From Escherichia coli (GTDB taxonomy: Bacteria > Pseudomonadota > Gammaproteobacteria > Enterobacterales > Enterobacteriaceae): DNA of 31,056 bases. Of the stretch, positions 1 through 25,921 are shown in pieces (the stretch's first letter is position 1; each line of letters opens with the position of its first letter). The position numbers and the translations under genes are program-made. Where the stretch lies: NCBI RefSeq assembly GCF_003334335.1, contig NZ_QOWQ01000047.1; one strand, given 5' to 3'. Under the pieces are notes generated by a model, which made no database searches, was not told where the DNA came from, and worked only from the letters and a program-made list of their open reading frames with translations.

Positions 1-463
1 CTTTATTATCGAGTTCGGTGACCGCCTGGACGGCCACTTCTGAGAAAAGGTATTTACACAGAATCCTGAACAGGCTCCCGCAATTCTTTACCCGCCAACC
101 TACCAACAATAGATGCACGTGCTCGTTTTTATCATCACCTAGATCGCCATCACTGTATTAATAGGTATGGTGATGTACTCACAATTCTACAAACCGACGG
201 CTGGCTTCCTCTACCGCAGAAATAATCTACTAAGGCGGTCTAAACGAAATTAATGATGAAATACCGGCATGTTGATAATATCAGAAAAGACATGCCATAG
301 TTATCTTGATCCGAATACCATGTGCGACGACTCGCTCAACTTCCATCATTCTTGGTACGTTGGAATCTCTTAATAAATTCTATCTGGCCACGGTGATTTA
401 TACCCTACTGAATTATATTGCTTTATTGAGAGAAACGGCCGTTCTTGGCAAGAAGCGGACAGA

Positions 464-907
464 CTAACTTAGCAGTAGGTCCGCTGTGAGCGAGGTGCAG
501 AAGTTCGCAATTGTTCTCGCAACCAAGGTAGCTAAAAAACACGGCAGGCAAATGTCTACATGTAAGATACACTTGCTATTATCAAGAATTTTAGTCCTGA
601 AGCATTTTAACTTTCTTCTCATGTTTTTATATTCGCCATTTATCCATTCAGGTTCTTCCCGAATAGCTGATCGCATACAGTGTGTTAGGATATCATTCCA
701 GAAAGCTGCAATCGCATCTGCAAACTCTATAAACTGTGTTTCTGTAACCTCTAGTTGCTCATGACGTAGACTAAATCTGACGGTGTCACCACGATGTAGC
801 ATCAGCATTGCGGTGAGCCGCCGGGCATGGTTTTTGTCATTTGTTTTATGGATAGTTTTCTGCATCAGGTGCCGTTCGGCTCTGGGTATTGGTACTATGA
901 TCGGCAT
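464..907 (-). pseudogene. Transposase-like fragment: first ~45 aa resemble the HTH N-terminus of IS630-family transposases, then diverges; likely truncated or decayed
   Basis: ORF-track translation MPIIVPIPRAERHLMQKTIHKTNDKNHARRLTAMLMLHRGD... recalled from memory as IS630-family-like; the catalytic DDE part is absent. Not verified by search. Confidence 0.3.
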
Positions 908-1289
908 TACTCAGTCCGGCTGGTGATTTGGGATATTCAGCGATTGATCAGATCGCATAAACCGGACTGAGTTCCCCTTGAGTGATCTACTATTCCGAGC
1001 AGCTATTTAGATTGTTATTGATGCCGGAAGAAAACATCACTCGATCAATTCCCCAATAGTCAAGCAAGCAAAAGAGAGTGCTGCACAGTTCAATGCTGGC
1101 CGTTTCATGCGAGGAAAATTCCCTTTTCATTGCAAGTTGCTCAAACTCTTTAGTGCCATCCTGAATGCGATGCTCAGAAAGAACAAAGAAATGTAATGAA
1201 TCCTGCCATCAGGTTACTCCATAATTTTGCTGGTCAAGACAGTTAATTACGTGACGTATGCTCAGGCACCGGATGCCGTTTTACCGGGT

Positions 1290-8961: not shown

Positions 8962-9438
8962 ATGCAACAGATTTCCTTTCTGCCCGGAGAAATGACGCCC
9001 GGTGAGCGCAGCCTCATTCAGCGGGCCCTGAAAACCCTGGACCGCCATCTTTATGAACCCGGCGTGGCCTTCACCTCCACGCATGCGGCACGGGAGTGGC
9101 TGATTCTGAACATGGCGGGACTGGAGCGGGAAGAGTTCCGGGTGCTGTATCTGAACAACCAGAATCAGCTGATTGCCGGTGAAACCCTTTTCACCGGCAC
9201 CATCAACCGCACGGAAGTCCATCCCCGGGAAGTGATTAAACGCGCCCTGTACCACAATGCCGCTGCCGTGGTACTGGCGCACAATCACCCGTCCGGTGAA
9301 GTCACACCCAGTAAGGCAGACCGGCTTATCACCGAACGTCTGGTACAGGCACTGGGCCTGGTGGATATCCGGGTGCCGGACCATCTGATAGTCGGTGGCA
9401 GCCAGGTTTTCTCCTTTGCCGAACATGGTCTGCTTTAA
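8962..9438 (+). CDS. RadC-like JAB/MPN-domain protein (YeeS/YkfG/YfjY family)
   Basis: 158-aa ORF containing the JAMM-type motif HNHPSG (...VVLAHNHPSGEVTPSKAD...). Confidence 0.75.
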   Translation: MQQISFLPGEMTPGERSLIQRALKTLDRHLYEPGVAFTSTHAAREWLILNMAGLEREEFRVLYLNNQNQLIAGETLFTGTINRTEVHPREVIKRALYHNAAAVVLAHNHPSGEVTPSKADRLITERLVQALGLVDIRVPDHLIVGGSQVFSFAEHGLL

Positions 9439-12115: not shown

Positions 12116-12125
12116 AATTCATATA

Positions 12126-12155
12126 AACGGACCTCCACGGAGGTCCGTTTTTCGT
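12126..12155 (+). terminator. Intrinsic terminator (native pheU terminator) directly after the tRNA fragment
   Basis: AAACGGACCTCCACGGAGGTCCGTTTTTCG: a GC-rich stem (CGGACCT / AGGTCCG) followed by a T-run. Confidence 0.6.
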
Positions 12156-18196: not shown

Positions 18197-18209
18197 TTAG
18201 CTCGTACAA

Positions 18210-18237
18210 GGGAAGTGGCTTGCCACTTCCCTTTTTT
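18210..18237 (+). terminator. Intrinsic terminator after cadA
   Basis: GGGAAGTGG-cttg-CCACTTCCC hairpin (9-bp GC-rich stem) followed by TTTTTT. Confidence 0.65.
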
Positions 18238-21466: not shown

Positions 21467-21479
21467 ATTTCACTTTAAT

Positions 21480-21509
21480 GAACGAAGCAGTCAGGCGACT
21501 GCTTCGTTC
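21480..21509. terminator. Hairpin between convergent lysU and ghoT; possible bidirectional terminator
   Basis: 13-bp perfect stem GAACGAAGCAGTC / GACTGCTTCGTTC with a 4-nt loop. T-tracts on both sides are weak. Confidence 0.45.
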
Positions 21510-21584
21510 ATCGTTCCGCAAATCCAGTTTTGAGGAGAGACGCTTCGTTTCACGATAACCAGCGGGTCCACTCAACTACAGCTC

Positions 21585-21758
21585 CTAAAAGAGAGAAAAA
21601 AGTAATGCCACAGGCAGACTCATTGGCCAGGTTATTCCGACCAGGAATGCACTAAGTAAACGAATATGTGTTTTCTCATGTGAGATAAACCAGATAATGA
21701 CAAAGGATATGTTCACACCAATCACATAAAAAATTAATATTTTAGAGAATAGTGCCAT
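21585..21758 (-). CDS. ghoT: GhoT, small membrane toxin of the type V GhoT/GhoS toxin-antitoxin pair (57 aa; below the ORF-track length cutoff)
   Basis: Hand translation of the minus strand gives MALFSKILIFYVIGVNISFVIIWFISHEKTHIRLLSAFLVGITWPMSLPVALLFSLF-stop, 27 bp downstream of ghoS. Confidence 0.8.
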   Translation of the reverse strand: MALFSKILIFYVIGVNISFVIIWFISHEKTHIRLLSAFLVGITWPMSLPVALLFSLF

Positions 21759-21785
21759 TTTTTATGTTCTTCTTATCCTTCCTGG

Positions 21786-25351: not shown

Positions 25352-25921
25352 CGGATCGCTGGTTATCTGTAAGTAATAATTATTACCGTAATGCAAAATA
25401 CCCCTGGCACAAGTTACATCCTTCATCAGTAAAACTTGTGCCAGATCAAATATAATTATCCCTCCATCATCGCTAAAAATTAATATCTCTTCAGGTGAAC
25501 GGTGTTTTTAATTTCAAAACGCTAACAAAAGTTAATTAACTATTATGTCACCCGCATTATGTGTATTTTTACCCACAAATGGGTAGATCAGATTAATCTA
25601 TAAACCTAATGACATCTGCCCTGAGAACAAAAAATAGACCGATAAATATCAATAAGATAACAGCAAACAAAACATTAACATCTGCGCAGTACAAACTATA
25701 AACCCATCGCCAGAGAGTCTTTCTCTCTGAAAAAGCCGCTTATCACAGTGCATAAATTTGCCGCTGCTTTAATCAGCCAATATTCACTGTGAGGTATTTG
25801 CTAAAGCCGGTAACGACCAAACGGATATTTAGTCAGGCTCTGAAAACAGTTCATACAAAACAGAACGTGACTGTGATCTATTCAGCAAAAATTTAAATAG
25901 GATTATCGCGAGGGTTCACAC
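25352..25921 (+). promoter_or_regulatory. Long AT-rich dcuB upstream region (expected DcuR/FNR/CRP-regulated promoter)
   Basis: 570-bp AT-rich intergenic stretch. Regulation is from established knowledge of dcuB; individual sites were not confidently located. Confidence 0.4.

Follow-up and report, generated by a model that had tools for sequence, protein, structure and literature searches.

A chimaeric pseudogene built on an IS630-family left end in an Escherichia coli island, and a conserved transposase-leader stem with a predicted antisense RNA

Near the start of a 31,056-nucleotide stretch of Escherichia coli DNA (hereafter, the window), an open reading frame (ORF) at 464–907 and an inverted repeat beside its start are best explained together as the left end of a defunct IS630-family insertion sequence (IS) fused to a scrap of a phrog_19541-type prophage gene, with the repeat being a conserved stem of the transposase leader that points to antisense control in intact elements. 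We put the probability of this joint reading at roughly 0.85. The IS remnant is ordinary and had already been flagged by standard annotation; the possible antisense module is the one part of the locus with some novelty.

Megablast of positions 300–1300 against 5,426 complete E. coli genomes split the region at 779. The segment 779–1013 matches the starts of IS630-family transposase genes together with the DNA upstream of them (91–94% identity), and 439–779 matches the 3′ end of a gene annotated as ‘hypothetical protein’ (~92%). Using BLASTN with a whole intact element as the query, we obtained a single match in the window (232 nt, 94% identity), with no other piece of IS630 anywhere in the 31 kb. 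The intact copy measures ~1,154 bp between its flanking TAs, which lie within C-TA...TA-G, carries 20-nt imperfect terminal repeats and encodes a 343-aa transposase that matches NCBIfam transpos_IS630 (9e-75) and Pfam HTH (27–136) and DDE_3 (177–315) models.

What survives of such an element in the window lies on the minus strand and comprises the 100-nt transposase leader with the left terminal inverted repeat (908–1007, the repeat at ~982–1007) and a 5′ fragment of the transposase gene, codons 1–43 (779–907), whose product is 88% identical to the corresponding residues of the intact protein. The IS tip, ...CAGCTATT at 1007, is followed by a target TA (1008–1009) and a G (1010), as at intact copies. 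This fits one side of a C-TA[IS]TA-G insertion into CTAG, the second TA of which would have gone with the deleted part. Most related loci likewise have ‘CTA’ directly before the IS tip, and the preference of IS630 for TA in CTAG is cited in a published account (PMC2170065). These alignments show that 779–1007 derives from the left end of an IS630-family element that had entered a TA within CTAG. Descent from the family is seen at both the DNA and the protein level and across the end, the leader and the gene start. A sequence-only reading of this DNA had proposed an IS remnant and had left room for the N-terminal resemblance to be a coincidence without likeness to any IS family; the remnant is borne out, terminal repeat and TA target included, and the resemblance is true homology.

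The remnant retains 229 bp; ~925 bp are missing, the DDE domain and the right end among them. Of the two terminal inverted repeats of an intact copy, the 31-kb window has the left one only, and of a DD35E-type transposase with its helix-turn-helix domains nothing is present beyond codons 1–43. With one end and no catalytic domain, the remnant cannot transpose. IS630 is 1,153 bp long and encodes a 343-aa transposase. The element, from Shigella sonnei, is placed by ISfinder in the IS630 family of the Tc1/mariner superfamily, and the related intact Enterobacterales element resembles it in having HTH and DDE_3 domains, 343 residues and a TA target in CTAG; the remnant, in contrast, has a single end, no DDE domain and no second copy of TA. 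Its parent may have been IS630 proper or a named isoform.

The ORF itself (464–907, minus strand, 147 aa) joins transposase codons 1–43 to ~52 in-frame codons of phrog_19541 type and ~50 out-of-frame codons. In a three-way alignment of the window with an intact copy of the IS (L002) and the hypothetical-protein gene from strain E24377A (L003), the prophage-type gene fragment meets the IS at 778/779, an illegitimate junction with one nucleotide (G) of microhomology. The prophage-type fragment (439–778, minus strand, ~92% identity) consists of the last ~190 nt of a gene for a 259-aa protein plus ~150 nt downstream. ORF residues 44 to ~95 align in frame with the C-terminus of this protein (E 2e-34); a 1-nt deletion in a T-run at 623/624 shifts the frame within the donor fragment, and the ORF reads beyond the point, ~591–593, at which the native stop of the donor gene would fall. 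The statement of the sequence-only reading that about 45 N-terminal residues look IS630-like and the rest does not resemble a DDE transposase was thus accurate, and the remnant explains why the likeness is confined to that part. In E24377A the donor protein, a member of phrog_19541 (a PHROGs family of unknown function), is encoded in a lambdoid prophage context; PADLOC, Pfam and NCBIfam searches with its 259 residues gave no match. Searches of Pfam and NCBIfam with the 147-aa ORF found no domain or family, a result explained by the loss of all but 17 residues of the first helix-turn-helix.

Given that the IS has been joined, by chance in frame, to a phrog_19541-type 3′ end with a 1-nt deletion of its own, we regard the ORF as almost certainly a chimaeric pseudogene. 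The junction is shared by 2 of the 5,426 complete E. coli genomes and has therefore been inherited as a scar within this island lineage. RefSeq labels the counterpart of 779–907 in two E. coli genomes that have this junction as ‘IS630 family transposase, incomplete, missing C-terminus’. That the ORF might instead be a functional new gene, its product a fusion protein that has been domesticated or an inhibitor derived from a truncated transposase, could be argued from the in-frame fusion and the retained native start region, but we find this hardly credible when a mere 17 residues of the first helix-turn-helix are left, the last ~50 residues are frameshifted read-through past the donor gene’s stop, no domain is found, the ORF is confined to those 2 genomes and RefSeq treats it as a pseudogene.

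The fusion of the IS end to the prophage-gene scrap is probably the result of an old deletion. An intact donor gene beside the 148-bp patch that follows the IS tip was sought, both near and distant, in the 5,426 E. coli genomes, and only the two genomes with the same scar were found, with no island in the undeleted arrangement. The patch (1008–1155) is an orphan between the IS tip and an inovirus-Gp2/YagK-YfjJ island module, and it has no match among the 5,426 genomes except the two that share the scar. From ~1155 onwards, the Gp2/YagK-YfjJ module is found in >1,800 genomes. The comparison with other islands proposed by the sequence-only reading yielded the position at which module homology starts.

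Four breakpoints fall within 1.1 kb (~83, ~439, 778/779 and 1007/1008), and this is a scarred module boundary, with homology to other islands only from ~1155. The idea of a recombination scar at a boundary between island modules is thereby upheld, although the remnant marks just one of several points of rearrangement in this E. coli island, which lies on the setC/selC side of the chromosome, and the inverted repeat is no longer a candidate element boundary. At the outer edge, positions 1 to ~83 are the right end of an IS1414 copy (IS256 family) that is absent from the two closest genomes, whose homology starts at 74. Next to it is the 3′ end of a 450-aa gene (~74–225), of which those two E. 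coli genomes have an intact copy. The 450-aa gene matches the PADLOC anti-phage model PD-T7-3 (E 1.7e-36), and this PD-T7-3-like defence gene appears to have been knocked out in the source strain through truncation by the IS1414 copy. We also observed that in E. coli E06 (L085, 3384–3981) homology to the Gp2-family module stops at the equivalent of ~1155, beside a remnant of the IS110 family; the spot downstream of the Gp2-family gene may be a recurrent breakpoint.

We next turn to the inverted repeat. Its 11-nt arms, ACTCAGTCCGG (909–919) and CCGGACTGAGT (962–972), are exact and 42 nt apart, as originally described. The description was mistaken in one respect, namely that the repeat overlaps the ORF start: the ATG occupies 907–905 and the near arm, from 909, lies one base upstream, with neither arms nor spacer reaching the ORF. 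A perfect 11-nt inverted repeat with a spacer of 3–60 nt is expected 0.47 times per 31 kb, and at least one arose in 27% of Markov-1 simulations. Taken alone, the repeat is therefore only mildly improbable by chance and constitutes weak evidence. We accept it as real because the same stem recurs in related leaders and covaries, and not on account of its 11-nt perfection.

In the window copy, the outer stem (909–972) can be extended to 13 pairs, and its loop contains a small inner hairpin, GCGAT-N7-ATCGC (939–955). The 3′ arm of the outer stem corresponds to nucleotides -12 to -2 ahead of the AUG on the transposase mRNA. In the intact E. coli copy, the same stem occurs, with two mismatches, in the leader between the terminal repeat and the ATG. 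Scanning 100,044 species genomes with the intact transposase as the query, we collected 80 loci (57–96% protein identity), which gave an alignment of 61 distinct leaders, and the stem is present throughout these 61. The arms change in a compensatory manner: where some leaders have CUCAGUCCGG/CCGGACUGAG, one clade has CUCAGUGUG/CACACUGAG and another CUCAAUGCGG/CCGCAUUGAG. Of the 11 outer pairs, 5 have changed on both sides (18 cells). The covariation score was matched in none of 500 shuffles of the columns, and pairing dropped to 16–39% when the partner was slid by 1–3 columns, the slid controls as a whole falling to 13–40%. Covariation beyond that of the shuffles, together with the collapse of the slid control, indicates that the pairing has been selected. 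The alignment thus shows the repeat to be, on comparative evidence, an intrinsic conserved stem of the transposase leader of this IS630 subgroup, with compensatory changes.

Two other identities for the repeat were considered and rejected. As a pair of terminal inverted repeats it is misplaced, given that the IS tip is at 1007 and that an intact copy has no such motif at its right end; as a recombination site it is too far away, the 778/779 junction lying 130 nt off. The proposed check for terminal repeats and a target duplication needs qualification in that the 11-nt repeat is neither of these things. A broader version, in which the repeat is a site at the DNA level (bound by the transposase or a host factor, serving as a Dam-controlled operator, or extruding as a cruciform that promotes rearrangement), would make sense of the conserved GATC sites and sequence blocks beside the terminal repeat and of the heavy rearrangement of the region. 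We consider it very unlikely, however: the 130 nt between the junction and the nearest arm mean that the repeat is not at the breakpoint, the right end of the intact element lacks the motif, and arms 42 nt apart covary by Watson–Crick and wobble rules with a strand bias, which fits pairing in a single strand better than an operator.

The strand bias is pronounced. The outer helix is 97.5% paired when read on the antisense strand versus 85.5% on the sense strand, and where the sense strand fails to pair, it does so mostly through A.C or C.A mismatches, each of them equivalent to a G.U wobble in the antisense RNA. Parsimony on a neighbour-joining tree of the coding sequences counted 22 events to or from sense A.C (that is, antisense G.U) versus 3 for sense G.U (binomial P = 1.6e-4), counts that recombination between IS copies could inflate. 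The antisense fold is the more stable one in all 61 sequences, with means of -30.1 versus -19.8 kcal/mol for sense, and RNAalifold gave -14.2 kcal/mol for antisense versus -9.8 for sense. The A/C-rich loop of the sense strand is G/U-rich on the antisense strand, which lengthens the helix there. Two results count against our reading: in the inner hairpin the wobble trend is reversed (5 events versus 11, not significant), with a sense-strand U.G in 12 sequences, and the whole 128-nt sense leader folds no better than shuffled sequences (z = -1.6 and 0.0).

These data bear directly on the main rival account of the function of the repeat, which is that it acts only in the sense mRNA, as a 5′-UTR hairpin that sequesters the ribosome-binding region and thereby attenuates translation or blocks activation by read-through from outside, with no antisense RNA involved. 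Fold-back structures of this kind are used by IS200 and IS10, the 3′ arm at -12 to -2 includes the conserved GGA/GAG, the window copy folds as a 13-pair stem, the compensatory changes would fit pairing on either strand and the U.G pairs of the inner hairpin are on the sense side. Against this, most of the variation breaks the sense stem as A.C, with the loss of pairing given above, the sense fold is the weaker in every one of the 61 leaders, and a conserved TGnTAnnnT motif inside codons 3–5 of the transposase gene would be left unexplained. We judge a role in the sense mRNA only to be rather unlikely.

The TGnTAnnnT motif is read on the antisense strand and lies 7–9 nt before the first base of the stem in 55 of the 61 sequences. 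In three more, the window copy among them, it is shifted by 3 nt; the window copy has lost the canonical TG of the extended -10 and just the shifted version is left. There, the predicted outward promoter element (890–901, plus strand, in transposase codons 3–6) consists of an extended -10, TGGTACTAT (890–898), overlapping TATGAT (896–901), and is proposed from the pattern of conservation. The motif is kept across clades whose transposases begin differently (MPIIAP, MPILPP, MNRISL and MNKIAF). Among 44 intact genes, its five specified positions (sense nucleotides 7, 11, 12, 14 and 15) are 100, 100, 95, 95 and 100% conserved, and the four unspecified positions in between are 77–84% conserved. 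Two of the specified positions are third-codon positions, for which conservation in the gene body averages 0.58 and reaches 0.9 in 6.8% of cases. The profile is that of a putative sigma-70 extended -10, with A-11 and T-7 invariant and the middle positions free, and the antisense start is predicted at ~908 (±2 nt), which coincides with the base of the stem.

Other searches around this site were negative. A consensus promoter scan of 400–1300, which demands a -35 hexamer, returned nothing at the spot on either strand, and a scan of the same interval found no intrinsic terminator after the hairpin. Inspection by eye of the conserved leader for a sigma-70 promoter of the transposase gene gave no candidate with A-11, T-7 and a -35 inside the IS. 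Searching 400–1400 against Rfam 15 (E ≤ 10) yielded only chance snoRNA and plastid matches far below gathering scores. Taken together, the wobble pattern, the folding energies and the conserved candidate -10 all point to the antisense strand as the one on which the stem probably operates.

From these observations we infer that intact elements produce an outward antisense RNA like RNA-OUT of IS10 or art200 of IS200. In such a scheme, the extended -10 in transposase codons 3–5 would read outward, and the resulting RNA would begin at the base of the stem and fold into a long imperfect hairpin, corresponding in the window to a predicted stem-loop at 908–973 on the plus strand. Along its full length this RNA would be complementary to the 5′ UTR of the transposase mRNA and to the conserved GGA...GAG that forms part of the ribosome-binding region before the AUG, and its pairing with the 5′ UTR would block ribosome binding both in cis and in trans. 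The same repeat may also fold back in sense transcripts and so hide the ribosome-binding site. The remnant retains the predicted promoter, the hairpin and the IS tip and may still make the RNA, with no transposase gene of its own left to control. It is possible, if somewhat short of an even bet in our estimation, that the IS630 subgroup has a previously undescribed antisense module specifying an RNA of ~65 nt or more, and that solo remnants could repress intact copies in trans.

RNA-OUT of IS10 and art200 of IS200, the latter element with a stem that sequesters the Shine–Dalgarno (SD) sequence, provide the precedents (PMC4513863). In common with IS10 RNA-OUT/RNA-IN, the IS630 subgroup is predicted to transcribe an antisense RNA outward from a promoter within the first part of the transposase gene. 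The 5′ end of this RNA would lie at the foot of a long, imperfect stem-loop, the RNA would be able to pair with the region where transposase translation begins, and sense transcripts reading through the repeat could also form a fold-back (PMC4513863). There is no sequence or Rfam similarity to IS10, control in the IS630 subgroup is a sequence prediction, and the predicted RNA ends short of the start codon rather than covering it. The resemblance to IS200 lies in an internal inverted repeat at the left end that pairs the Shine–Dalgarno region and in a cis-encoded small RNA opposite the 5′ UTR (PMC4513863), whereas the transposases are unrelated (that of IS200 is of the HUH/Y1 type), the sequences are not similar and art200 extends over the first three codons.

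Of the features that define RNA-OUT and art200, the stable, covarying antisense stem-loop is present in the IS630 leaders, with the high pairing and two-sided changes described above, and an outward antisense promoter near the transposase start is present as a sequence prediction. Homology to described RNA families was absent from the Rfam 15 search, and the predicted RNA is therefore at most an analogue of RNA-OUT and art200, not a member of either. Because of the covariation, the strand-specific wobble bias and the candidate promoter in synonymous sites, this Tc1/mariner-type IS group appears to share the antisense and fold-back layout with the unrelated IS10 and IS200. If confirmed, it would be a third independent case of such control logic and would open copy-number control of IS630, an element abundant in Shigella, to testing.

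We know of no DDE Tc1/mariner-type IS that uses RNA-OUT-like control. A full-text literature search returned no description of an IS630 leader hairpin or antisense RNA; the earliest IS630 papers fall outside that search and may hold a prior mention. The original IS630 sequence paper is reportedly that of Matsutani et al. from 1987.

Several minor observations accompany these results. The IS630 leader and gene start in the window carry four GATC (Dam) sites (899–902, 945–948, 950–953 and 984–987), of which the first overlaps the predicted antisense -10 (TATGATC), the middle two are in the loop of the inner hairpin and the last is inside the terminal repeat. Most of these sites are conserved in the family alignment, and this suggests that methylation has a controlling role like that in IS10 and IS50. 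Among the IS630 relatives, that of Edwardsiella ictaluri (L024, ~695–818) has a duplication of ~19 nt in the loop between the stem arms, and in Arsukibacterium (L078, 801–2290) the transposase match extends over 1,490 nt, suggesting an insertion within the gene. Finally, perfect inverted repeats of at least 11 nt with short spacers occur at ~7 loci in the window versus the 0.47 expected by chance. The others, at 9174–9199, 12125–12150, 18208–18233, 21478–21511, 21724–21767 and 25404–25444, are probably terminators or REP-like elements.
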